Sequence record: SRR20825019_500
Reading direction: 5' to 3' (one strand)
Length of the DNA: 38,785 bases
Shown: positions 10,380-37,920 of the stretch, in pieces
How the letters are laid out: each line of letters starts with the position of its first letter
Numbering within the stretch: position 1 is the first letter of the stretch
The notes under the pieces: generated by a model
What the model was told of the DNA's origin: nothing
Seen by the model: only the letters and a program-made list of their open reading frames with translations
The model's database searches: none
Translations under genes and position numbers: made by a program

Positions 10380-10449
10380 CCCACACTAGGGCCATTTAAT
10401 CGACCAATGGGCCCTGATGGTTTCCCGTTCAGTCCGCTATGATGGGAAC

Positions 10450-11100
10450 GTGATACCAACGACCCCACGTAGCGTTCATCAATCAAGACTGGCGAAAGGA
10501 CATCAGGGGATGTCTCTCGTCGAAGTGATGGTGGCAATGTTTATCCTGGCCACGGTGCTGATTGGTTTTCTGGGCACATTCGTGCAATCACGCCGCATTT
10601 CTGAAAGCAGTGTGATGCACGCCGCCGCTTCCAGTTTGATCTACGGCATCGTCGAGCAAATCAAAGGATTTGATTACAATACCCTATTACCCAGCACCGC
10701 AGCCGATCCCAACGCACCAAATGGTTCCAGTCCTCCTTACATTCGTGTGCGGATCAATCAGGACGACGTGGAGTGGCTCCAAACCGTCTACACCACAGAA
10801 GCATCCGGGCTCGGCCCTCAAGCTCCCACCGTCACTCCCAGTTCGACGGCCACCGCAGCCAGTTTGGGTGCGGTCGATAATTTCATCGGTCCTCTACTTC
10901 TTTCCAGCGCAGCCGGAACCCAATCACAAGCGCTCAACCTGAGGCTTTGGATTTGGGTCGATGAAATCCCCGACTCCGACAAAGACGTCACCGAAGTAAA
11001 GAAGGTCACCCTTGTTTACGCTTACCAATATCTGGACGGCCGCACCACCCGCACCGCCATTGATCGCGAAGTCTTTATTCGCACTCGATTCGACCAATGA
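10450..11100 (+). CDS. Type IV prepilin-like protein (PilV-like minor pilin)
   Basis: Class III signal ...RLAKGHQG|MSLVEVMVAMFILATVLIGFLG, with Gly at -1, Glu at +5 and a hydrophobic helix. GTG at 10450 chosen as start; the ORF opens at 10417. Confidence 0.85.
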   Translation: MIPTTPRSVHQSRLAKGHQGMSLVEVMVAMFILATVLIGFLGTFVQSRRISESSVMHAAASSLIYGIVEQIKGFDYNTLLPSTAADPNAPNGSSPPYIRVRINQDDVEWLQTVYTTEASGLGPQAPTVTPSSTATAASLGAVDNFIGPLLLSSAAGTQSQALNLRLWIWVDEIPDSDKDVTEVKKVTLVYAYQYLDGRTTRTAIDREVFIRTRFDQ

Positions 11101-11834
11101 AAATTTTCCCTAAACGCACCTCCAGGATGTCCGGATTTACGATGGTCGAAGTGATGATCAGCTCGGCGATCACGGCCCTCGTCCTCGGCGGCACCATGGC
11201 CACGTTCATGTTTGGTTTCCGCACCATGTATAAGGACAACCAACGGTTGGCGACCAATGCGACCCTGCGCTATTTCATCGCCCAGATCTCCAAGGAAACC
11301 CTCGATGCCACCGAATTTTACGTCTTCCCCGATTACCAATCTCTCGATGGCACCATTAACATTTCCAACGACGTTGCCAGTCTCCAAGCAGATGCTCATG
11401 GCACGTTTCTGGCCTATGGCGATTGCCTCGTCCTCGTCACGCGTTCCTCCATTAACGCCACCTCCAATGTGAGACAGATCCGGATCTACTACCGGGTGAC
11501 CACCAATGCGGCAACCGTTGCCCCGGTGCGATTCTACGAAGGCACCGATTATGGCGTCAATGGGACCAACACCTCTCTCACGACTCTGCTCAACGCGATT
11601 AATCTCGAGGACTACCCGTCCCTCGCCGGGTCCAGTGAGATGGTCGCCCACGCCCGCGGTAGGCTGAAGACCGGCACCAGCAGCACCTACTATCCCATCT
11701 TCTCGACGGAATCCGCGAACATGACTCCGACGAACGACAGCGTTTCCATCAATATCGAGGTCATTAACGGCTCCACGGTGAACAACCTCCTCTCAAGCAG
11801 TAGCTTCAATTACACCATTTCTCCGCGCAAATAA
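11097..11834 (+). CDS. Type IV prepilin-like protein (PilW-like minor pilin)
   Basis: MKIFPKRTSRMSG|FTMVEVMISSAITALVLGG class III signal; ATGA overlap with the upstream gene. Confidence 0.87.
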   Translation: MKIFPKRTSRMSGFTMVEVMISSAITALVLGGTMATFMFGFRTMYKDNQRLATNATLRYFIAQISKETLDATEFYVFPDYQSLDGTINISNDVASLQADAHGTFLAYGDCLVLVTRSSINATSNVRQIRIYYRVTTNAATVAPVRFYEGTDYGVNGTNTSLTTLLNAINLEDYPSLAGSSEMVAHARGRLKTGTSSTYYPIFSTESANMTPTNDSVSINIEVINGSTVNNLLSSSSFNYTISPRK

Positions 11835-11838
11835 TCCC

Positions 11839-14688
11839 ATGAAAACGAAATCCCTTTCCTTACAATGCCAACGGGGCTCAGCCTTGGTTGCCGTCATTTT
11901 TTTCGTCATGATCATGAGCTTGCTCACGGCGAATGTGATTAGTTACTCGGTCAGCGAACGCCGCTCCAACGAACGCCAACGGTTGATTTTGCGCGCCCGC
12001 AATATGGCGGAAAACAGCGCTCTCTATGCTTCTGAACAGGTCACCACAAAACTGTATCGTCTGCGGAGCACCACACCGATCGCGTTCACTTCCGGGAGTA
12101 ACCAAATTTACCTGCCACCGGCGGATGTCTTGACGACTAAATTCTCCACCACCGCAGATACCAGTGTGCTCGGCGGGCTCACCTCCACCACCGGACTCAC
12201 CTTTATCGATCCCGCCGATGCCGCCAACGCGACCAATCCCAACGTGGGGCTCCAGGCGAGCACCAGCTTGGTGCCCATTATCGCAAAATCCACGATGTCC
12301 CACCCCGCCGTCGGTGCGGTCACGGCCTTTGCCCGGCAGGATCTGCAGGTTTCCCTCATTCCCCTTTTCCAATTTGCGATCTTCTACAATCAGGATCTGG
12401 AGTTCTCTCCCGGAGCGGATATGATTATCAGCGGTCCGGTTCACGCCAACGGCAATCTGATCGCGCGTTCGCAGACCGGATTTAATAACACAGTGCAATT
12501 TCGCGACCGCGTAACGGCAACGGGTGGGTTCTATGCCGATACCGCCTACAAAGGGAATATGTATAATGAATACGGCGGTGTGGATAACGGTCCGGGTGGC
12601 AACGGTCCGCTTTACTTCCAGAATCCAGCCGGTTCGGTGACCAACATTAAGAGCAATGGCGGCACATGGCGTGACCATAAATACGGTTCCAACAACGAAT
12701 CCGCCACGACACTGAACCAATTCAAAACCTTCGCTTCCGCCACCTATGGTGCGAACCTCCGCACGAGTGTCCATGGAGTGACCGATTTAGTCTTACCCGG
12801 TATCGACAGTGCCAATCCCGACGCCAACAACGGACGGGTGCTCATCGATGTTCCCCTAGCGGCTGATAACGCCGCCGAAAGGGAAACCAAGTTTTCACGC
12901 AAAACCGGCCTCTACATCGTAGTCAATGCCAGTGAAAGCGACAACGACGGCGTTCCCGATGCCACTGACCGTGGCATCCGCACTGCCAACCTTCCCGATG
13001 GAACTACGGTCAATATGCTCCCTCGGTCGTATCGGTGCTGGCTGAATACCGTCAACGCAGACGGCTCCCACACCCTGACTGAAGTCGTTCTCCCCGGCCA
13101 ACCGAGCTATGGTTACGACGATAGCGGCACTGCCCTTGATTTCACCGACGACGTGATGATCCAAAACGATCTCCCCAACCGCTTCACGGATAAAACTGAA
13201 GTCGGCATGAATCAGGTATTACGCATTCCTTTCAGTGGGCGCCTGCAGGACGAAGCTATCCAAAGCTATGCGGCCGTGAGTCTGCCTCTCATCAGGGACA
13301 ATTTAAACGACAATAACATCAAGCCGGGCTACCCCACGGGCACTCCCGAACTTACGAACGGTTCAACGGTGATTCCGGATGCCTTTTTCTACGACCTTCG
13401 TCGGGCTGACAATAGCGAGGGCTATCCCTTCAATCGTTCCTCCGGCGATCCGTTTGCGCCCCGTCCCATTGCGAAAATTGATTTCGACATGACCCGTTTC
13501 CGCTTGGCCGTTGAACGCACCATGGGCGGTGGAAATAATAGCTCCGCGGTTTACAACCCCGACATTCCCAACAACAGCAATTGGAATAACAATATCCTAA
13601 AATCGAGCGCCACTCCGAAGTCCATGGATATCAATCCCAATGCCGGTGTGTTAAGCCCGCTCGGTGTGCAAGCCTCCGACCCTTTTAAAATCTATTACCC
13701 CAACGGCACCGCTCTTGGTTCCGCCAATCTGATCAATGCAGGCGCCCCATCGCCTTGGTTTGATGGCATCACGGTCTATATCAATTCCGTCGATGCAGAA
13801 TCCCGTGCGATTGAAAACAATGATCCCGATAACAACAAGGAAGCTGATACCGGGGTAAGATTGATCAATGGCCGCGGCCCCGTGGTCAGCTTGTCTCCCG
13901 CGACTTATCCCGGTCGCACCGGCTTCAGCCTCGCGACGAATGATGCTCTCTATATCATCGGTCATTTTAACGCAGACGGCTCAATCAATTCGAACGCTAA
14001 TTCCACGTCCAATCCCGGAGGTTACAGCGCTCGCTACCGTGACAGCACTGACGAGATGCTCTGTTCCGTTATGGCCGACGCGATCACAATCCTATCTCAA
14101 CCCGAATTTACCAAATCCGGCAGCAACTACTATCAAACCAGCGGCTGGTGCGACTCGCATAGCGGCAATCGCCGTTCCTCTTCCAACTGGAGTAGCACAT
14201 GGTATCGTAGTAATCCCAGCGGCAGTAATCGAGTTGACGGCGTCAACCGTTCATTCCGGCCTTCGGAACACCCGTTCCTCGGAACATCGCACCCGGGAAG
14301 CGGTTCCAATCGCAGCACCAAATTCTCGCCCAATGAGACGGAAATTTCAGTTTGTATGCTCACTGGCATCGTGCCGACAGACAGCCACCAAACCAGCGGT
14401 GGAGTGCATAACTTCCCACGATTACTCGAAGAATGGAGTGGCACCGGCCTATACATCCGCGGTTCGATGATCGCGATGTTTAATAGCGAAGTCGCCACGG
14501 AACCCTGGAGTATCCGAATCTACACCGGTGCGGGGCGTTTCTGGGGTCTTCATCAAAACCTGCGCGACGCCAATCACGACGTCCCCCTCGAACCCGTCGC
14601 GCTCAATGCCCAACGTCTGCATTACACCGAGTTGAATGAAACCGAATACAATGCGGTAAAAACCCAGATCGAAGCGCTCCCCAATTAA
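11839..14688 (+). CDS. Large PilX/GspK-like pilin with an Asn/Ser/Thr/Gly-rich extracellular region (949 aa)
   Basis: QRG|SALVAVIFFVMIMSLL signal lacking Glu+5, the PilX/GspK hallmark. PLFQFAIFYNQDLEFSPG...GPVHANGN block; C-terminal GGVHNFPRLLEEW block. Confidence 0.8.
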   Translation: MKTKSLSLQCQRGSALVAVIFFVMIMSLLTANVISYSVSERRSNERQRLILRARNMAENSALYASEQVTTKLYRLRSTTPIAFTSGSNQIYLPPADVLTTKFSTTADTSVLGGLTSTTGLTFIDPADAANATNPNVGLQASTSLVPIIAKSTMSHPAVGAVTAFARQDLQVSLIPLFQFAIFYNQDLEFSPGADMIISGPVHANGNLIARSQTGFNNTVQFRDRVTATGGFYADTAYKGNMYNEYGGVDNGPGGNGPLYFQNPAGSVTNIKSNGGTWRDHKYGSNNESATTLNQFKTFASATYGANLRTSVHGVTDLVLPGIDSANPDANNGRVLIDVPLAADNAAERETKFSRKTGLYIVVNASESDNDGVPDATDRGIRTANLPDGTTVNMLPRSYRCWLNTVNADGSHTLTEVVLPGQPSYGYDDSGTALDFTDDVMIQNDLPNRFTDKTEVGMNQVLRIPFSGRLQDEAIQSYAAVSLPLIRDNLNDNNIKPGYPTGTPELTNGSTVIPDAFFYDLRRADNSEGYPFNRSSGDPFAPRPIAKIDFDMTRFRLAVERTMGGGNNSSAVYNPDIPNNSNWNNNILKSSATPKSMDINPNAGVLSPLGVQASDPFKIYYPNGTALGSANLINAGAPSPWFDGITVYINSVDAESRAIENNDPDNNKEADTGVRLINGRGPVVSLSPATYPGRTGFSLATNDALYIIGHFNADGSINSNANSTSNPGGYSARYRDSTDEMLCSVMADAITILSQPEFTKSGSNYYQTSGWCDSHSGNRRSSSNWSSTWYRSNPSGSNRVDGVNRSFRPSEHPFLGTSHPGSGSNRSTKFSPNETEISVCMLTGIVPTDSHQTSGGVHNFPRLLEEWSGTGLYIRGSMIAMFNSEVATEPWSIRIYTGAGRFWGLHQNLRDANHDVPLEPVALNAQRLHYTELNETEYNAVKTQIEALPN

Positions 14689-29978: not shown

Positions 29979-30100
29979 GTTCAGTCACCTTTTCTCGAAC
30001 GGCGATTGGCGCATCAGCGTAATCGCCGTTTTTTGTGCGAACACGATTTGCTCTCGAATGTGTGTTGCCGAGTGCAGGGGCTTGCTTTCCGATTACTCCC

Positions 30101-31858
30101 ATGTCGCCACATTCGACAACTGAGGTTTCCTTCACCTGCATTCTCGCATTCGACCGCTCTAATCTGCTCGCCGTGCGCCAACTCGGCAGTAAGTCCGGCC
30201 TGGCTTTCATGGGAAATGATCTCGTGCTGGCTACCCAGCGTCTTCAGTCCGCCTATCCTCAACACACCCCCCTCCTCGAATATTTCACCGCAGTAACACC
30301 GAGCGGAAGCTACCGGGTCTTTTTCACCCAGATCACCGAACAAACGTCCGATCGTGAAATCCGACTCCGTTCTCTCGAGAGTCTCGAAAACGCTCCGGAG
30401 CAACTTTCCCCCGCTCTCGCTAACATCCTCACCCAGCTCGATCCGCATCTAATCGACATCCCGTATCTGCACATCGGTGAGAATGATTTTATTTATAAAT
30501 TTCGGCCGGAGAAAGAGCGTAATGCCGCCATTTACGCCGAGGATTCCGTTTCCAGTGCGCTTTACCAATCAAAGCTGTGCACCCTGATCAAAACCCTCGC
30601 ACGCACCCACGAACGCACCGCCGCGAAACCGGTTTCTTTGGATTTCGGCCCCATCTGCTACCATATACCCAGCCACTTCGGGTTTTGTTTGGGGGTGAAA
30701 AACGCAATTGAGCGCGCCTATGAAACACTCGCCGGTAATCCGGACCGGCGGGTATTCATGCTTTCGGAGTTAATTCATAATCCATACGTCAACGAAGACT
30801 TGCTGCGCCGCGGATTACGATACCTTCAAACCGACAAGGGCGTGCCCTATTCCACGGACGGCCAACCAGCGAATGGAGCGTCCGAGACTCCCTTGCTTTG
30901 GGATACCCTCACTCCGAACGATATTGTCATCATCCCCGCATTCGGCGCCACTGATGAGGATAAGCGTCGATTGGTCCGCAAGGGAATCGCCGTGTGCCAA
31001 TACGATGCCACCTGCATGCTCGTTGAGAAAGTATGGAAAGCAGCCCGCACCTATGGACGCAAAGGCTACACCGTCATCATACACGGCAAGGCCGAACACG
31101 AAGAGACTAAAGCCACGTTCTCCAACACCAGACGCTACGCTCCTGCCATCATTGTCCGCGATCTCGAAGAGGCTCGCCTCTTGGGTCGCCTGATCGCCTC
31201 ACCCGACCCCGCGGAGCGCGCCACGTTCTACCAGCTGTTTGCCGATAAACACACACCGGGGTTTGATGTTGAGAAACATTTCAATCAGGTCGCGGTGGTC
31301 AATCAAACCACCTTGTTGGTGAATGAAACCAGGGCAATTATTTCGCATCTCCGGGAAGTTTACTCGGAATTGCACGGTCCGGATGGACAGGAACGCGTCG
31401 GCGGGAGCGGCCGCACCGACACACTGTGCTATGCCACGCAAGTGAACCAGGACGCCTTGGCCAAAGCACTCGACCAACCGCTGGATGCCGCTTTTGTGAT
31501 CGGTGGAAAAAATTCCTCAAATACCTATCAGCTCTATCGCCTCTGCGAACAGACCTTGGGGGAGCAGGCGTTTTTCATCCAGTCCGAGTCCAATATTATT
31601 TCCCCGGCTAAAGTGAATCACTATGTTTTCCCCTCTCCTCGCGACGGCAGACCACTGGGCAAAATGATCACAAAACCATTATGGGAAAATGCCGATTCCG
31701 CTTCACAAAAGCGTGTGCTGATCACGGGAGGCGCATCATGCCCCGATGGAATCATTCAACAGGTGATCACCCGTCTAAACGCGCTGTTTCCAAGGGAATC
31801 ACTCCGCTCTCTCGATACCATCCTTGAGGAACTCACGGCACATATTTCAGACGAATAA
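30101..31858 (+). CDS. ispH: 4-hydroxy-3-methylbut-2-enyl diphosphate reductase with a long N-terminal extension
   Basis: Three Fe-S cysteines (FGFCLGV, DATCML, DTLCYAT), plus IHNP, HEE, KNSSN and GASCPD. Start placed at ATG 30101. Confidence 0.92.
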   Translation: MSPHSTTEVSFTCILAFDRSNLLAVRQLGSKSGLAFMGNDLVLATQRLQSAYPQHTPLLEYFTAVTPSGSYRVFFTQITEQTSDREIRLRSLESLENAPEQLSPALANILTQLDPHLIDIPYLHIGENDFIYKFRPEKERNAAIYAEDSVSSALYQSKLCTLIKTLARTHERTAAKPVSLDFGPICYHIPSHFGFCLGVKNAIERAYETLAGNPDRRVFMLSELIHNPYVNEDLLRRGLRYLQTDKGVPYSTDGQPANGASETPLLWDTLTPNDIVIIPAFGATDEDKRRLVRKGIAVCQYDATCMLVEKVWKAARTYGRKGYTVIIHGKAEHEETKATFSNTRRYAPAIIVRDLEEARLLGRLIASPDPAERATFYQLFADKHTPGFDVEKHFNQVAVVNQTTLLVNETRAIISHLREVYSELHGPDGQERVGGSGRTDTLCYATQVNQDALAKALDQPLDAAFVIGGKNSSNTYQLYRLCEQTLGEQAFFIQSESNIISPAKVNHYVFPSPRDGRPLGKMITKPLWENADSASQKRVLITGGASCPDGIIQQVITRLNALFPRESLRSLDTILEELTAHISDE

Positions 31859-31870
31859 ACAAGCATTCAT

Positions 31871-31901
31871 AAAAAAGACCGCCCACCAGCGGACGGTCTT
31901 T
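31871..31901 (-). terminator. Intrinsic terminator (possibly bidirectional) between the convergent ispH and beta-barrel genes
   Basis: The minus strand reads AAAGACCGTCC-GCTGGT-GGGCGGTC-TTTTTT: a GC stem with one G-U pair and a U6 tract. Confidence 0.85.
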
Positions 31902-31924: not shown

Positions 31925-33046
31925 TTAGAACTTAAAATTCAAACCGCCTCGGAAGCCCTGCAATCGGGATAGATCCACATCCAGCGAATAGCTCGAGGAA
32001 TTTTCCGTGATTTCCTGGGTGTATTCTCCACCGGTTTGGGAAAAACCACCGACATAGATCCCGGCATGTTCGGACAGCAAATACTCCAGACCAATATCAG
32101 CATAATATCCGGTCATCGTCTCTCCGACCGTGCTGCCCACCTGATTGGCAATCAGCGCACCGGTATCAACCGTAAATTGGTGATCCACGGTATAGGTCGT
32201 TCCAGAATACACAAAGACCGGGCCTCCACTGACAATAAACCGGAGTTTATCGGTGATGTTAATTCGAAAAGTCGGGCCAAGGCGGGCCGTCACATAGGTG
32301 CCACGCAATTTCCAAATACTGTTAACCTGCGTGTCGTTCGTCACCGTTGATTCCGATCTGCTATCGGGGCGGCTCCCCAAAAAGACACTTGTTTCGACCA
32401 GGTTGCCATCATCATCCGTGGTAAAAGTAGGTGCCTCATAAGGCACGGTCGCAGGAGGAGTCTGCCCATCAAGACTATAAACATCCGTGATCGTTGTGAC
32501 GCTCGCCATCACCGAATCACTGGCATTGGCCTGCAAGCCGTTGATACTAAGGCCTGCAGTCACCATCCACTCGATTCGATTGCCAATCTTCCCCAAATCA
32601 CGAGAGATCACCAGTTCCGCACCAAGACTCAACCCGTCATCGTTGTTTCTCGTGGAGGTATCCAGAGTCTGTGCCGAATACACATGAAATGCCAAATCAG
32701 CGCCGTCATTGATCTCCTGGGCCCTGTCATCATAGGCCCAATTATTGGTCTTCCCGTCGTTAGCGTCTACTTCACGTTGGTCCAGAAACACACTGCCATC
32801 ATGATAACCTCTCACGACATCCGTGCTGGTGGAGTCCTGCAATTGGGAGAATGAAGAAACAAAGCCCTGACCGCTGAAGGCCGTCTTGGCCCCGGTGAGA
32901 CCGCGAAATCCCACATGCATGCTGATCTTCGGCTCCACATAGTAATCATCCAAATCAAAATTGGGGATCTCGTCCTCCGGGCTGCCGCGACCGGCTCCAA
33001 AGCAAATCGAGACAAGACCGAGAAATAAAAGTAAATAGCGATACAT
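31925..33046 (-). CDS. Putative outer-membrane beta-barrel protein
   Basis: Signal peptide MYRYLLLFLGLVSICFG, alternating hydrophobic strands, and a C-terminal beta-signal GFRGGLNFKF ending in Phe. Start placed at ATG 33046. Confidence 0.7.
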   Translation of the reverse strand: MYRYLLLFLGLVSICFGAGRGSPEDEIPNFDLDDYYVEPKISMHVGFRGLTGAKTAFSGQGFVSSFSQLQDSTSTDVVRGYHDGSVFLDQREVDANDGKTNNWAYDDRAQEINDGADLAFHVYSAQTLDTSTRNNDDGLSLGAELVISRDLGKIGNRIEWMVTAGLSINGLQANASDSVMASVTTITDVYSLDGQTPPATVPYEAPTFTTDDDGNLVETSVFLGSRPDSRSESTVTNDTQVNSIWKLRGTYVTARLGPTFRINITDKLRFIVSGGPVFVYSGTTYTVDHQFTVDTGALIANQVGSTVGETMTGYYADIGLEYLLSEHAGIYVGGFSQTGGEYTQEITENSSSYSLDVDLSRLQGFRGGLNFKF

Positions 33047-33172: not shown

Positions 33173-33871
33173 TTAGTCCGTAAATTCATTAAATTCTGAT
33201 TTAGCCTGCTTCTCAGCGGAAAGAGCTTTGGCCGCATCAGGGTCAATCTCCGCTTCGCGCTGCTTGAGTCGTTCCTCCAGTGCCGCAAGTCCCTCGGAGA
33301 TATGCTCAAGCTCGGTCTCTTTCTCCTGCTGAGCCTGCACTTTCTCGAAGAGCTTGTTTTCGCTCTCCTCGAGAAAGATTTCGCGTTCTCTCACCTGCTG
33401 TTTCGACTCCTTTAGAGCCTCCTCCTGCTGATCGAGTTCCGCCTTTAATTTTTCCAGCGCCTCTTGTGCTTCCTTGCTGACTGCCGTTTTTGCCGGGGCC
33501 TTCTGGGCCGACACTTTCAGCATATGTTCACGGGCCTGCAGCAAGGCCTCTCCCTCCGCCAGATCCCGTTCCTTTTCAGCAATTCTGTCTTCGGCCTCAG
33601 TCACCATACGCTCACGTTCCACGAGCATGGCCTCGAGCTGACGCAGATTCTTTTCCAGTTCCGCCATCCGTTCCGCATCGAGACTCTTAGCCTCTCCCCA
33701 GGGAGTCTGCGTGGAGGAAACAATCTCTTTGATGGATTGCCGGGCCGCAGCTGAGGCCTCGGACACTTCAAATGGAGAATGAGTCTGCGCGCGTCTCCGG
33801 CGCAATGACAGGGTGAGCGACTCAGGCCGTTTGGCCGGAAATTTTATCGAGCTAACCGGTTTGTCGGGCAT
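33173..33871 (-). CDS. Coiled-coil protein with an Arg-rich N-terminus
   Basis: Two E/K/R/Q-rich heptad segments separated by an A/K/P linker; N-terminal KRPESLTLSLRRRR. Starts 5 nt after the upstream stop. Confidence 0.8.
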   Translation of the reverse strand: MPDKPVSSIKFPAKRPESLTLSLRRRRAQTHSPFEVSEASAAARQSIKEIVSSTQTPWGEAKSLDAERMAELEKNLRQLEAMLVERERMVTEAEDRIAEKERDLAEGEALLQAREHMLKVSAQKAPAKTAVSKEAQEALEKLKAELDQQEEALKESKQQVREREIFLEESENKLFEKVQAQQEKETELEHISEGLAALEERLKQREAEIDPDAAKALSAEKQAKSEFNEFTD

Positions 33872-33876
33872 GAAAT

Positions 33877-34716
33877 TTATTTTCCGAAGAGCCGCGAAAA
33901 GAACCCACGTTTCTTTCCGGATGTAGAACCCGAACTCTTCACTTTAGTCTGCGATTCGATCACCTCGGCGACCTGTTTTTCGGCCTCCTCATTATCCAAT
34001 ACAATTAATTGCCGCGAAAGCGAAGCACCGCCGGCCAAATTGTCCTGAACCGCCTGCCATTCCGCATCAAAGTAACTCAACGCGGCCTGCACCCGGACGG
34101 CATCCCCCTTGGTTTGCGCAAGACATTCGAACAAATGTAACCCGGTGCCGCCCACGCGGAACGGCAACACCTCACGCAAGGCCTTCACATCGACGTGCGA
34201 CAAAGCGTTGAGCAGCTTCCTGAAATCGCCCCCCACGATGACATTCTGGGACATGTTTTGCGCAAAACGCGCAAATTCTCCCACTGTCGTGAGGTTTTCC
34301 AACCGACAGAATTCAAGCGTATCGTCATCGAGTGCGGTCAGCAAAATGGGGAAATTCTCGGGGATGGACAACTTGCCCATATTTTTGACCAACTGATTGT
34401 CCTTCTCCGCATTTTGCTCGGAATGCTCCAGCATATCCCCAAACGGGTCGTCAAATGCCAGGGTGTCTTTCAGAATTGAAACCAGCAGCATCGCGTAATC
34501 CGGAAAACCTTTCAACGCGAGTAACTCCTTCACTTCATCAAAAGTCAGATCGATATAGACAGCAGGAGTTTCTTCGTTTCCCCGGATCGGCCAATCAGGA
34601 CCTTCCAGGTTTTGGGCCAGGCTGCTCAGTTTCGTGTCCACCATGATGGATGAAGCAAAAGCAGTGCGGACTTCATCCCAATCCTGGGCAGTAAAATTTT
34701 CGGCGGATTCAGACAT
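33877..34716 (-). CDS. Hypothetical acidic protein with a C-terminal amphipathic helix (KKRGFFSRLFGK)
   Basis: 279-aa ORF starting 21 nt after the ParA stop; no catalytic motif recognised. Confidence 0.8.
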   Translation of the reverse strand: MSESAENFTAQDWDEVRTAFASSIMVDTKLSSLAQNLEGPDWPIRGNEETPAVYIDLTFDEVKELLALKGFPDYAMLLVSILKDTLAFDDPFGDMLEHSEQNAEKDNQLVKNMGKLSIPENFPILLTALDDDTLEFCRLENLTTVGEFARFAQNMSQNVIVGGDFRKLLNALSHVDVKALREVLPFRVGGTGLHLFECLAQTKGDAVRVQAALSYFDAEWQAVQDNLAGGASLSRQLIVLDNEEAEKQVAEVIESQTKVKSSGSTSGKKRGFFSRLFGK

Positions 34717-34737
34717 CGGAAATTAGCATAAGGTTAA

Positions 34738-35631
34738 TCAGTCGGCACCTTGTCGGATGAGTTCACTCGCAAGACGACGATAATCGGTCAACACATTCTC
34801 TTGCGTCGGATCCTCCGATTCCTGCGAAAGCATCACCACAGGCATGCCGAGAGTGACCGCACGGCGAACGACCATCGCATCACGGATCTGCGTATCATAA
34901 ATCTTGGCCGTTGGTGATACTCGCTTGGCTGCCCGATACTGGTTCATGCGAAGTTGCATCCGCATTTTCGGCACTTCGATATCCACCCCGGTCTTGATCG
35001 AATTAAAGACGACCCCCTGCACCTGGGCCGGAATCCCCATCGAAGCGTCACGAAAACTCGCAGACAATTGATGAAACTTGCCCAATTTATCGATCAGCAA
35101 CGTGAAGCCGATCAGACTGAGTGCATCCGGATTCGACGGAACAATAATTTCATGACTGGAGAAAATACCACACTGTGAGGCGCGTAAAATATTCGGCGGA
35201 CAATCGAAGAAGATAAAATCATACTCATCTTCAATCGCGGCCAATTGCTCCTGAAAGATCAGATAATGGGGCCGCTTCGGATCTCCTCGATACTCAGCCT
35301 CCAAATCAACAAGATTGAAATTCGTAGGAACCAGATCCAACCCGGGCAGCACCTTGTTTCCCGTCTTATCCTCCACCACATCGCGCCAGACAATATCTTC
35401 GATATGCGCACTGCCGGGGTCGAAGATCGAATAGATCGCGCCTTCGCCCGTGGAATTGATTTTATTCCAGCGATCCAACCGCAAGAGCCAGATACTCGCG
35501 TTTGACTGGGTATCCAAATCAAACAGTAACACCTTTTTGCCCAACTTGGCCAAACTGGCCGCCGTATTGACGATCAACGATGTCTTGCCGACACCACCCT
35601 TGTAATTGATAAAGCTGATTTTTCGCGCCAT
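34738..35631 (-). CDS. ParA/MinD-family ATPase (orphan; no parB nearby)
   Basis: Deviant Walker A KGGVGKT, DLDTQSN, Walker B FFDCPP. Start placed at ATG 35631 (MARKISF). Confidence 0.93.
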   Translation of the reverse strand: MARKISFINYKGGVGKTSLIVNTAASLAKLGKKVLLFDLDTQSNASIWLLRLDRWNKINSTGEGAIYSIFDPGSAHIEDIVWRDVVEDKTGNKVLPGLDLVPTNFNLVDLEAEYRGDPKRPHYLIFQEQLAAIEDEYDFIFFDCPPNILRASQCGIFSSHEIIVPSNPDALSLIGFTLLIDKLGKFHQLSASFRDASMGIPAQVQGVVFNSIKTGVDIEVPKMRMQLRMNQYRAAKRVSPTAKIYDTQIRDAMVVRRAVTLGMPVVMLSQESEDPTQENVLTDYRRLASELIRQGAD

Positions 35632-35747
35632 GGGATATGCGTAGAGATAGGCAGAATCGCCTACCATCAAAGTGTTTACTTACTCAGGACCCGCGAGTCA
35701 AAAAGGAGCTTATCAGCTTTTGACGCTTTATTTGCACCCAACCAACC

Positions 35748-36227
35748 ATGCCTAAGACCTATCTACGCGATCAGATCCTTGCCCTCCTTCAATCTGAGCT
35801 CGCCCTGCAGACCAATGCCGCGCAACTCGCTCACGATGAAGCCATCAGCGAGGAAAGCCGTGCCGATAACAAATACGACACCCACAGTCAGGAAGCCGCC
35901 TATCTGGCGGAAGGCCAGGCGCGACTCGCCACGGAAGCCGGCGAATCCATCCAGGCCTACCGGCATTGCCAATTCCCGGTCTTCCAGCCCACCGATCCCA
36001 TCTCCATCGGAGCACTCATTGAGATCAGTTCAGCTGACCACACCACGCGTTTTCTCCTCGGCCCCAAAGCAGGTGGCCTCGAACTTGCCAATCACAAGAA
36101 CGATCCCGTGCATCTCATCACCCCACTGTCCCCCTTGGGCCGCCAATTGATCGGAAAACGACTGGGAGACACCGTGACGCTTCCAGGCTCGGATCGCTCG
36201 ATCTATACGATCACCCATGTTCAATAA
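35748..36227 (+). CDS. GreA/GreB-family elongation factor-like protein
   Basis: N-terminal helical hairpin with DNKYDT...EAAYLA; C-terminal ITPLSPLGRQLIGKRLGD typical of the Gre C-domain. Confidence 0.8.
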   Translation: MPKTYLRDQILALLQSELALQTNAAQLAHDEAISEESRADNKYDTHSQEAAYLAEGQARLATEAGESIQAYRHCQFPVFQPTDPISIGALIEISSADHTTRFLLGPKAGGLELANHKNDPVHLITPLSPLGRQLIGKRLGDTVTLPGSDRSIYTITHVQ

Positions 36228-36324: not shown

Positions 36325-37920
36325 ATGAGTTCTCCTTCCCCCACGACCAACATCACCACCGACCAACCGGAAAGCAGTTCCCTTCCCAACGATAGAGATA
36401 TCCTCACCCGGCTGCGCCACGAGTTGCGCACGCCGTTGAATCAAATCATCGGCTATGCCGAATTGTTGTATGAAGGAGCCAACGAGGCCCCGGAATTTTC
36501 TCCGCTTCGCATCTGCCTCCGCGAGCTACACAGCGCAGGAGAGGAAATCATCACCTTTCTCGGATTCACTTTGGTTCAGTGGAAAATTGATTCCGGGCAA
36601 GTCGACTTGGGGGAATTCCGCCAACAGATGTTGAATATCCTGGCCAAACTCGCGCGGCATCGTGACGAGTGCGAAGCCTATGCAATGGAGTTTGAACAAA
36701 GCGTCTCGCTTTCCGACCTCAAGAAAGTGCGTCGCGCGACGAATAATTTCTACTCCCTCCTCGAACTCGATGAATTCGACGACATCGATTCATGGAATAT
36801 TCCGCCGACCGTCGGCGATCGGGATTCCTCCGAAACCCAACAGCATGTAGGCACGACCAGCGCACCTCCGGAAGACTATCGCAAGCTATTGATTGTCGAT
36901 GATCAGGAGATGAACCGCGAAGTGCTACTGCGTCGCTTGCGGCGCATGGATTACGAAGTGAGCGCGGTTGAAAATGGCCAGGCTGCTTTGGATATCCTCG
37001 CCATGCAGCCATTCGATCTGGTGCTCCTCGATATCATGATGCCGGTCATGGACGGATTCGAAACGCTCCACCGCATCAAGATGGACGAAGCCTTGAAAGA
37101 TACCCCGGTCATCATGCTCACCGCCGTTGACGATCCGGCCAGCACGGTGCGTTGCATCGAATCGGGTGCCGATGATTTCGTCTCCAAACCTCATGATCCC
37201 GTCATCCTTCGGGCACGCATCAACGCTTCCCTCGAACGAAAACGCCTCCGCGACGCCGAACGGGCCTATCTCGCGGAAATTCAAAGCGAGCGCGCCAAAT
37301 CCGAACACCTTCTCCTCAACATTCTGCCCAAACCGATTAGTGAGCGCCTCAAACAAGGTGAGCAGGTCATTGTCGATGCGTTTGAAAATGCCACCGTGCT
37401 CTTTGCTGATATCGTCGGCTTCACCCACATCGCCGTGAATAATTCCGCGGTGAATACGGTGAATCTTCTCAACGAAATATTCTCCTCCTTTGATCAACTC
37501 TCCGAGGAATCAGGGGTCGAAAAAATCAAGACGATCGGTGATGCCTACATGGTCGTGGCCGGTGTGCCGGTTCCCCAGAAAGATCACGCCCTGCGAGTCG
37601 CTCGTGCTGCGCTGGGCATCATTGAAAAACTGAAGGAGTTCAATCAACGAAACGGCTATTCGTGGGAAGTTCGGATTGGGATCCATAGTGGTCCGCTGGT
37701 TGCCGGTATCATCGGATCAAAAAAATTCACCTACGATCTCTGGGGCGACACCGTCAATGTCGCGAGCCGGCTCGAATCGCACGGCGAGATTGGTTCAATC
37801 TATGTTTCCGACGAAACGGCGCACCTGCTCGCCCCGCATTGCCAATTGGTTCCCCGGGGCGAGATTGATCTTAAGAATCGTGGGGCCCTCTCAGTGCATC
37901 AGCTACTCGGTTTTAAATAG
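36325..37920 (+). CDS. Class III adenylate cyclase with N-terminal HisKA-like and receiver domains
   Basis: RHELRTPLNQIIGY; REC (IVDD, LLDIMMP, FVSKP); cyclase motifs LFADIVGFT, KTIGDAYM and YDLWGDTVNVASR. The Lys/Asp pair indicates ATP specificity. Confidence 0.92.
   Translation: MSSPSPTTNITTDQPESSSLPNDRDILTRLRHELRTPLNQIIGYAELLYEGANEAPEFSPLRICLRELHSAGEEIITFLGFTLVQWKIDSGQVDLGEFRQQMLNILAKLARHRDECEAYAMEFEQSVSLSDLKKVRRATNNFYSLLELDEFDDIDSWNIPPTVGDRDSSETQQHVGTTSAPPEDYRKLLIVDDQEMNREVLLRRLRRMDYEVSAVENGQAALDILAMQPFDLVLLDIMMPVMDGFETLHRIKMDEALKDTPVIMLTAVDDPASTVRCIESGADDFVSKPHDPVILRARINASLERKRLRDAERAYLAEIQSERAKSEHLLLNILPKPISERLKQGEQVIVDAFENATVLFADIVGFTHIAVNNSAVNTVNLLNEIFSSFDQLSEESGVEKIKTIGDAYMVVAGVPVPQKDHALRVARAALGIIEKLKEFNQRNGYSWEVRIGIHSGPLVAGIIGSKKFTYDLWGDTVNVASRLESHGEIGSIYVSDETAHLLAPHCQLVPRGEIDLKNRGALSVHQLLGFK

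Follow-up and report, generated by a model that had tools for sequence, protein, structure and literature searches.

A ParA/MinD-type ATPase and a partner protein with a probable membrane tail: a candidate positioning module of Opitutales

ParA/MinD ATPases are general-purpose positioning engines of bacteria, and each new pair of partner and cargo has widened their rules. We analysed a stretch of DNA of 38,785 nucleotides (nt), SRR20825019_500 (the window, to which all coordinates refer), read as part of a Verrucomicrobia (Opitutaceae) chromosome, and observed three adjacent genes that encode such an ATPase (ParA), an all-helical protein of an unnamed family (here called Mid) and a coiled-coil protein (here called CC). 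We propose that they represent an Opitutales-restricted positioning module of the ParA/MinD type, the core of which would be the ATPase together with Mid, with Mid carrying the membrane tail in trans; we put the probability of this reading at about 0.5. We read the system as a new variant of ParA/MinD positioning, and its invariant partner, Mid, belongs to a new family of proteins. The elements concerned, all on the minus strand, are as follows.

34738..35631 (-), ParA/MinD-family P-loop ATPase, 297 residues (Pfam AAA_31, CbiA)
33877..34716 (-), Mid, 279 residues, all-helical, unnamed family (no family match; AlphaFold2 (AF2) model)
33880..33915 (-), Mid C-terminal tail, residues 268-279, of the GKKRGFFSRLFGK type, a probable membrane-targeting sequence (conservation, hydrophobic moment)
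34189..34374 (-), Mid central sub-domain, residues 115-176, helix-hairpin-helix/RpoA alpha C-terminal domain (CTD)-like, a structural lead only (VIA-align)
33173..33871 (-), CC, 232 residues, long acidic coiled coil behind a basic N-terminal region (alignment, charge)
33701..33847 (-), conserved N-terminal region of CC, residues 9-57, a candidate ATPase-activating peptide (80-sequence alignment)

The gaps between the three co-oriented genes are 21 nt (34717-34737) and 5 nt (33872-33876), in exact agreement with an earlier note on this DNA, and the protein ends that it quoted (...LASELIRQGAD for the ATPase, ...KKRGFFSRLFGK for Mid and the CC N-terminus KRPESLTLSLRRRR) are present in the translations. 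The ParA open reading frame (ORF) spans 34738-35670, and the ATG at 35631 yields a protein that begins MARKISF, the start common to its orthologues.

We observed that the ParA-Mid-CC arrangement is conserved far beyond chance. When 80 related Opitutaceae loci were searched with tblastn, ParA was found in 80/80, Mid in 80/80 and CC in 79/80, with the order constant; the sole miss (L075) was a contig that ends 10 nt past Mid. The earlier note had named a lack of synteny in relatives as grounds for refutation, and in the 79 complete loci the trio is syntenic. The closest locus was in a Cephaloticoccus metagenome-assembled genome (MAG), with Mid 77% and ParA 92% identical. The L075 contig (3.6 kb, ParA 77% and Mid 53% identical) is filed under a Hyphomicrobiales MAG and is probably a binning error.

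Beyond these close relatives, the conserved unit was the ParA-Mid pair. When a profile built from distant relatives of Mid was run against 301 evenly sampled Verrucomicrobiota genomes, 42 of them held the family; the ParA subtype (at E <= 1e-40) was found in the same 42 genomes and no others. In genomes with a duplicated Mid, ParA was mostly duplicated too, with each ParA adjoining a Mid. Among 30 distant loci (Mid 24-56%, ParA 57-75% identical), ParA lay directly upstream of Mid in 27, and the three exceptions were second, ParA-less paralogues of Mid. The identity of ParA, 57-92% across the Opitutaceae and distant loci, indicates strong constraint. By GTDB level, Mid was found in 11/151 genomes at the class level, 44/151 at the order level and 76/121 at the family level. 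In a wider search, 1514 homologues of Mid were obtained at E <= 1e-3, and all those with a named source came from Opitutaceae or Opitutae. Among 1.84 billion proteins, Mid was represented by 156 clusters.

By both motif and profile, the window ATPase belongs to the ParA/MinD (A/D) superfamily of P-loop ATPases. It matched Pfam AAA_31 (E 3.3e-35; 122 bits, cut-off 27) and CbiA (E 2.3e-13; 50.6 bits, cut-off 25.4), with a partial match to CBP_BcsQ (E 1.1e-8). The deviant Walker A motif KGGVGKT occupies residues 11-17, with the signature Lys11 and Lys16, and K11, G12-T17, D38, D40 and D143 were invariant across 21 sequences, so that Walker A, A' and B are intact. None of the NCBIfam equivalogs reached its cut-off (the best, ParA_partition, gave 63 bits against 180). 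With a cut-off of 212.9 bits, the minD_bact profile (TIGR01968) reached 36.1 in a match confined to residues 9-41, and the MipZ profile PF09140 covered only residues 5-44 (profile positions 3-42 of 262), which places the protein outside both MinD and MipZ. The best sequence match in the PDB was Soj (6iub, E 2.3e-16), over residues 3-184 only. The protein has no C-terminal membrane helix; it ends ...ELIRQGAD, and its last ~15 residues are not conserved. It does carry five invariant arginines (R224, R228, R250, R256 and R257) within residues 213-257, a stretch of net charge +7, and R224 aligns with an arginine of the Soj-like paralogue that presumably corresponds to the DNA-binding arginine of B. 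subtilis Soj (R189).

The earlier note had treated this ParA as an orphan and not as the chromosomal Soj, and the related genomes agree. A separate Soj-like gene was present in each of three Opitutaceae genomes (two of them complete chromosomes), scoring 172-182 bits against AAA_31 where the ParA orthologue scored ~120, and the window ParA was 25% identical in a pairwise alignment to the Soj-like protein of one of these relatives (G001). A canonical ParB (with ParB_N, HTH_ParB and ParB_C) was unlinked to either ParA in all three genomes. In G001 (L081, 4029-4835; L082, 3954-4904), the Soj-like parA lies at 1.735 Mb and parB at 1.286 Mb, not adjacent to each other, and the Soj-like gene adjoins two ABC-2 permease genes. 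FtsZ was present in all three genomes, MinE was not found and no MinD scored above the cut-off (0/3). MinD was also missing from all 301 sampled Verrucomicrobiota genomes; the absence of Min therefore cannot account for a clade-restricted system, and a distribution of the module complementary to that of Min was rejected for the same reason.

Mid had no match in Pfam, NCBIfam or PADLOC. It is strongly acidic (net -17), and its AF2 model, made from a 34-sequence alignment, was all helix, with a mean predicted local distance difference test score (pLDDT) of 87.6 and a predicted template modelling score (pTM) of 0.63 (an earlier model from 16 sequences had a pLDDT of 74.7). The model has three helical sub-domains, at about residues 3-105, 111-183 and 190-260, followed by a variable linker and the tail. 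The conserved motif AFDxPFGDM (residues 87-95) falls inside a dip in model confidence at ~81-100, with a block mean pLDDT of 59 over residues 91-100. A complex prediction with two copies of ParA and one of Mid gave an ipSAE interface score of 0.00 in two runs made without supplied alignments or control folds, a result that speaks neither for nor against binding.

The tail of Mid has firmer backing than the structural likeness of its central sub-domain described below. The earlier note had drawn attention to the end of the middle protein, and a basic-hydrophobic C-terminal end is indeed conserved across orthologues. After the variable linker, the tail was kept in 16/16 Opitutaceae sequences. 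In 73/80 orthologues, a stretch of Lys/Arg leads into a paired-hydrophobic pattern (two hydrophobic residues, any two, two hydrophobic), and the other seven end in a similarly hydrophobic-basic manner. The pattern was also seen in 15 of the 19 rows of the distant alignment, down to ~20-30% identity. The median 8-residue hydrophobic moment of the tail, 0.68, was above the 95th-percentile value for the protein body, 0.66. These features suggest that the tail is a probable membrane-targeting sequence, presumably resembling that of MinD.

Structural comparisons yielded one lead for Mid. Foldseek searches of the PDB with both models gave no match at E <= 0.001, and VIA-align over 48,161 chains gave nothing above Z 5.4, all matches lying below its caution line of Z 8. 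Within that limit, residues 115-176 superposed on the RpoA CTD (1z3e_B) with Z 5.1 and 4.9 (root-mean-square deviation (rmsd) 3.1, 58-59 of 67 residues aligned), and further RpoA CTD, Y-family polymerase and RAD51C-N rows gave Z 4-4.9. In Atlas, an RNA_pol_A_CTD cluster stood at rank 28 with a score of 0.76. The likeness to the RpoA CTD was not backed by sequence, since hhalign of the Mid profile against Opitutales RpoA CTDs gave a probability of 0.86% (E 0.064, 24 columns); a Pfam RNA_pol_A_CTD search of five genomes did not retrieve Mid either. We treat the helix-hairpin-helix/RpoA CTD likeness as a modelled lead only. Matches of the N-terminal domain to the filovirus VP30 CTD (Z ~5, rmsd 3.3-5.6) and helical matches of the C-terminal domain look like generic helical packing, and a T2SSF assignment was rejected (10 of 34 family members, 12-18 bits against a cut-off of 25.2, ~45 residues).

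A few unusual forms of Mid were also seen. Three long 'fused' proteins, each from a contig of its own (P0398, P0399 and P0400), contain scrambled stretches resembling read-through or frameshifts and were set aside as assembly or gene-calling errors. Another protein (P0207), from a single 2.1-kb contig, joins a Mid-like part to a coiled coil similar to residues 114-191 of CC (E 1e-5). It may be a read-through of a pair made of a second Mid and a short CC, like that in the distant locus L128, on what is weak evidence.

CC had no Pfam family, and its NCBIfam matches were far sub-threshold ones of the coiled-coil type (FlbB, 24.8 bits against 110; SMC). The earlier description of a third protein with a basic N-terminus and a long coiled coil was borne out by an 80-sequence alignment, in which residues 9-57 have the consensus IKFP, L-x-L-RRRR and SPFEVSE-x-SAAAR-x-SIK-x-IV-x-AT. 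Residues 1-35 carry a net charge of +5, and residues 60-232, 23% of them Glu, one of -17. By analogy with partners of other ParA/MinD ATPases, the N-terminal region is a candidate ATPase-activating peptide. With PADLOC, we observed only P-loop-local or coiled-coil matches (E >= 5.5e-8, ~40 residues), with none for Mid, and an anti-phage defence system was rejected as its models were not matched.

When we examined the neighbourhoods of the pair, three types of context were observed.

Type A, Opitutaceae: GreA-like gene (divergent), then ParA-Mid-CC-outer-membrane protein
Type B, Thalassobacterium-type: Amidase_3, 563-residue unknown, ParA, Mid, then Kdo transferase, YdjM, PagL
Type C, L127, L129, L130, L132 and L134: Ser/Thr kinase (Pkinase E 1e-30), ~240-residue unknown, ParA, Mid of 322-345 residues

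The earlier note had described a three-part system. This holds within Opitutaceae (79/80 loci), and elsewhere the invariant unit is the ParA-Mid pair; as the accessory genes vary, the three-part format is best regarded as one elaboration of a two-part core. A CC homologue was nevertheless present in 5/5 Puniceicoccaceae-type genomes, in the fifth of which it follows a ParA-less Mid paralogue, and in L128 too a short CC homologue lies after a second Mid paralogue that lacks a ParA. One distant locus (L100) has a divergent 257-residue coiled-coil ORF in the position of CC. In type C, an extra ~500-residue unknown stands at the front only in L127 and L130. The ParA-Mid pair of the five type C loci is a paralogous one, and in L127 and probably L130 a SUI1-domain gene comes after it. 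In three loci of type B (L113, L115 and L131), an Amidase_3 gene of the AmiC type and a gene for a 563-573-residue protein of no family precede ParA-Mid, all co-oriented.

Among the neighbours in the 80 loci were the divergent gene with a GreA/GreB C-terminal domain (66/80) and IspH (43/80). The outer-membrane gene gave tblastn matches in 56/80 loci, in one of which (L057) it was not downstream. In the window it is co-oriented with the trio, ~126 nt after CC, and its product has a signal-peptide-like start and a C-terminal Phe. We found no terminator-like site between CC and this gene, and there was one after its stop, so that a four-gene transcript is possible. The 373-residue product had no match in Pfam, NCBIfam or the sequences of the PDB; its nearest Atlas clusters, at a score of 0.99, were labelled 'hypothetical protein' and belonged to Verrucomicrobiota, and the Pom and OmpW families are no more than leads. 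It is probably an outer-membrane beta-barrel of a Verrucomicrobiota-only family and a candidate member of the system. The features concerned are as follows.

31925..33046 (-), possible fourth gene of the transcription unit, 373 residues, probable outer-membrane beta-barrel (co-orientation, Atlas)
31879..31892 (-), terminator-like hairpin and T-run, 3' of the outer-membrane gene (consensus scan)
35632..35747 (no strand), 116-nt divergent intergenic region between ParA and the GreA/GreB-type gene, presumed promoter region of the operon (ORF coordinates)

The terminator-like site at 31879-31892 is weak by itself, since nine such sites were observed in the region against 4.9 +/- 2.2 in shuffles. 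A consensus scan of 35632-35747 found no sigma-70-like match.

In the mechanism that we propose, the ATP-bound dimer of ParA would sit on a matrix, most likely the nucleoid, while Mid would be held at the inner membrane by its tail and would couple a membrane-associated structure to ParA. In Opitutaceae, CC would serve as a PomX-like scaffold, with its Arg-rich N-terminal peptide stimulating ATP hydrolysis, and the resulting gradients of ParA would place or space a membrane-bound assembly. The nucleoid is the likelier matrix because ParA has no tail and keeps its invariant basic stretch (residues 213-257). As to the cargo, an envelope or division-related structure is our guess; among the neighbours are hints of an envelope or division role and of phospho-regulation, which do not converge on one cargo. 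The earlier note had listed the division site among the possible cargoes, a role that the distribution leaves unsupported, with MinD missing throughout the phylum sample and the system missing from many Opitutaceae. A link to flagella was rejected (Mid+FlhA+ 47, Mid+FlhA- 29, Mid-FlhA+ 31, Mid-FlhA- 14; odds ratio 0.73, p 0.56), and in G001 the system, at 1.10 Mb, is not near ftsZ, at 6.41 Mb.

Several observations weigh against this proposal. The system was not found in 45 of the 121 Opitutaceae genomes, so it is dispensable for many relatives. MreB, which served to check genome completeness, was detected in 118/121, so most of these absences must be real, and the family can do without this lineage-specific system. 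CC was detected downstream by tblastn in only 18 of the 30 distant loci, seven loci (L083-L086, L089, L090 and L093) were plain two-gene ParA-Mid units, and in four of the five Puniceicoccaceae-type genomes CC was unlinked, lying there divergent from a gene of ~870 residues. The accessories vary by lineage (the outer-membrane protein; the amidase with the 563-residue unknown; the Ser/Thr kinase with the 240-residue unknown), and no single cargo stands out. The 11-residue hydrophobic moment of the Mid tail is unremarkable (0.21), and AF2 leaves the tail unstructured (pLDDT ~50). The choice of the nucleoid as matrix is a weak step because the DNA-binding determinants of ParA-like ATPases are poorly conserved, as stated in the available part of PMC7229837. 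The physical interactions, the matrix, the stimulation of the ATPase and the cargo are all matters that we infer.

The membrane itself could instead be the matrix, as in Min: ParA would be recruited through the tail of Mid (a 'MinD' split over two polypeptides), CC would release it in the manner of MinE or anchor it in the manner of DivIVA, and the device would set the FtsZ ring. This is possible, though on balance unlikely. It would fit a tailless ParA beside a Mid with a conserved basic-hydrophobic tail, the conserved basic peptide of CC, the three Opitutaceae genomes with FtsZ and without detected MinE or MinD, and the Amidase_3 gene that lies two genes upstream in the same orientation in L113, L115 and L131. 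The distribution argues otherwise, as MinD was missing in 301/301 genomes and the system was present in 42/301, so that no host-specific gap is filled, and the absence from 45/121 Opitutaceae and the distance from ftsZ in G001 point the same way. No MinC-like inhibitor was identified among the genes examined, and the amidase is a neighbour in only three of the five loci of its type. We hold as doubtful the more specific idea of a 'split Min', in which ParA and the Mid tail would pattern the inner membrane, the Arg-rich peptide of CC would trigger hydrolysis, and the division plane or an envelope site would be chosen, with rewiring to a kinase or a septal-type amidase in sister lineages. A comparable doubt attaches to the idea that ParA, instead of positioning by gradients, serves to assemble or regulate an envelope complex, much as BcsQ, TadZ/CpaE or FlhG do, with the trio as the cytoplasmic parts of this complex and the outer-membrane protein of Opitutaceae included. 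The co-oriented outer-membrane gene, with no terminator-like site before it and matches in 56/80 loci, the Amidase_3, Kdo transferase and PagL genes that adjoin the pair in other lineages, and the partial CBP_BcsQ match would be expected of such an ATPase. However, 24/80 loci lack the outer-membrane gene beside the trio, as do the two-gene versions; in the window, none of the adjoining genes encodes a secretion, pilus or polysaccharide synthase protein, the T2SSF matches of Mid were sub-threshold and not significant, and there was no flagellar association.

Noc offers a functional comparison for a further reading, in which the system would be a DNA-membrane tether serving nucleoid occlusion or segregation: Mid would bind DNA by a helix-hairpin-helix and the membrane by its tail, and ParA would act on it as on ParB. 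The superposition of nearly the whole 67-residue domain at Mid 115-176 on the RpoA CTD and other helix-hairpin-helix domains (Z 4.0-5.1), the RNA_pol_A_CTD cluster in Atlas and the canonical ParB unlinked to any ParA in 3/3 genomes are compatible with it. We nevertheless consider it very unlikely, since all the Z scores lie below the caution line and hhalign gave the low probability noted above, the net charge of Mid (-17) would be unusual for a non-specific DNA binder, and a Soj-like ParA and a full ParB are already present. Finally, the three genes might be unrelated neighbours, or ParA might be the chromosomal Soj. The interactions among ParA, Mid and CC do stand as inference, but the order kept in 79/80 loci, the identical presence and absence of Mid and ParA (42 and 42 of 301) and the continued adjacency of duplicated pairs argue against mere neighbourhood, and the separate Soj-like paralogue, 25% identical, argues against Soj; this last explanation is strongly disfavoured. 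A positioning module with Mid as the tail-bearing partner of ParA is the reading that we prefer.

The module can be likened to several known systems. PomXYZ of Myxococcus xanthus, a nucleoid-riding positioner of the division site, also consists of a ParA-type ATPase and two non-ParB partners, and it is likened here by architecture only. In PomX, a positively charged N-terminal peptide activates PomZ and the C-terminal domain forms polymers, according to the available part of PMC7993993; as far as that account goes, PomX and CC are laid out alike, with a basic N-terminal peptide ahead of a C-terminal part that in CC is a coiled coil. PomZ has two activators that bind at different sites, as the accessible text of 10.1101/2025.12.01.691545 describes. 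The differences are that Mid carries a probable membrane tail, unlike the nucleoid-riding Pom complex, that the invariant partner here is Mid and not the coiled-coil protein, and that the present system is confined to Opitutales. In the part of PMC11407121 available, ParA-like ATPases are described as binding DNA through a positive C-terminal interface and MinD-like ones as binding the membrane through an amphipathic helix, and the rule for the family is that the partner acts through its N-terminal region. MinCDE, like our system, combines an ATPase of the deviant Walker A kind with a partner whose N-terminal region is basic, and its short basic-amphipathic membrane tail at the C-terminus is presumably similar to the tail of Mid. 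It differs in that the tail here is on a separate protein (Mid), that ParA scored 36 bits against the MinD cut-off of 212.9, and that no MinC or MinE was found in the searches described above.

With ParABS (Soj-Spo0J), the system shares the ATPase superfamily, the best match of known structure being Soj (E 2.3e-16), but ParA is 25% identical to the Soj-like protein, there is no adjacent ParB, and the partner families are unrelated to ParB. McdAB, ParC-ParP, PpfA-TlpT and further ParA systems dedicated to one cargo resemble it as orphan ParAs beside a small cargo-specific adaptor (the available part of PMC11407121); here, in contrast, no microcompartment or chemotaxis genes are near, and the adaptor belongs to a new family and bears a probable membrane tail. 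We found no description of a ParA-Mid system in the full-text literature searched on Verrucomicrobia, Opitutaceae and orphan ParA/MinD-like positioning. Two papers on cell division in the Planctomycetes-Verrucomicrobia-Chlamydiae (PVC) group (PMC5147048 and PMC12283558) mention no ParA or Min system in their available portions, and their supplementary tables might list ParA-like genes.

Opitutales are common in soil, freshwater and insect guts, and their cell biology is almost unstudied. The new partner family bears a probable membrane tail of the kind that is normally on the ATPase in the MinD branch. If our proposal is right, the system would be a natural example of modular rewiring, with the same ATPase-partner pair joined to a coiled-coil protein, a kinase or an amidase, and it would offer an entry point to the cell biology of Opitutales.

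The rest of the window is made up of housekeeping and signalling genes, including Kup, MetG, AlaS, RibD, IspH, two-component systems and TonB. Pfam scans of the 25 other window ORFs showed no parB, minC/minE, chemotaxis or microcompartment (carboxysome) genes, as the earlier note had stated for the neighbourhood, and six of the 25 were without any Pfam family match. The gene divergent from ParA (35748-36227, +) encodes a 159-residue protein with a GreA/GreB C-terminal domain only (E 1.4e-7), which is possibly Rnk-like. It is followed at 36325-37920 (+) by a gene for a 531-residue protein in which a HisKA-like segment and a receiver domain are fused to a class III adenylate/guanylate cyclase domain (E 3.2e-57). 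Read at its longest, the IspH/LytB ORF at 30035-31858 (+) begins with GTG and encodes 607 residues, of which Pfam LYTB covers only 213-581; either the protein is extended by ~200 residues at its N-terminus, or translation really begins at a later codon. At 10417-14688 (+), the first of three co-oriented genes encodes a product with an N-terminal methylation motif of the prepilin type (E 4.6e-6), and the next two encode proteins of 245 and 949 residues without a Pfam family.

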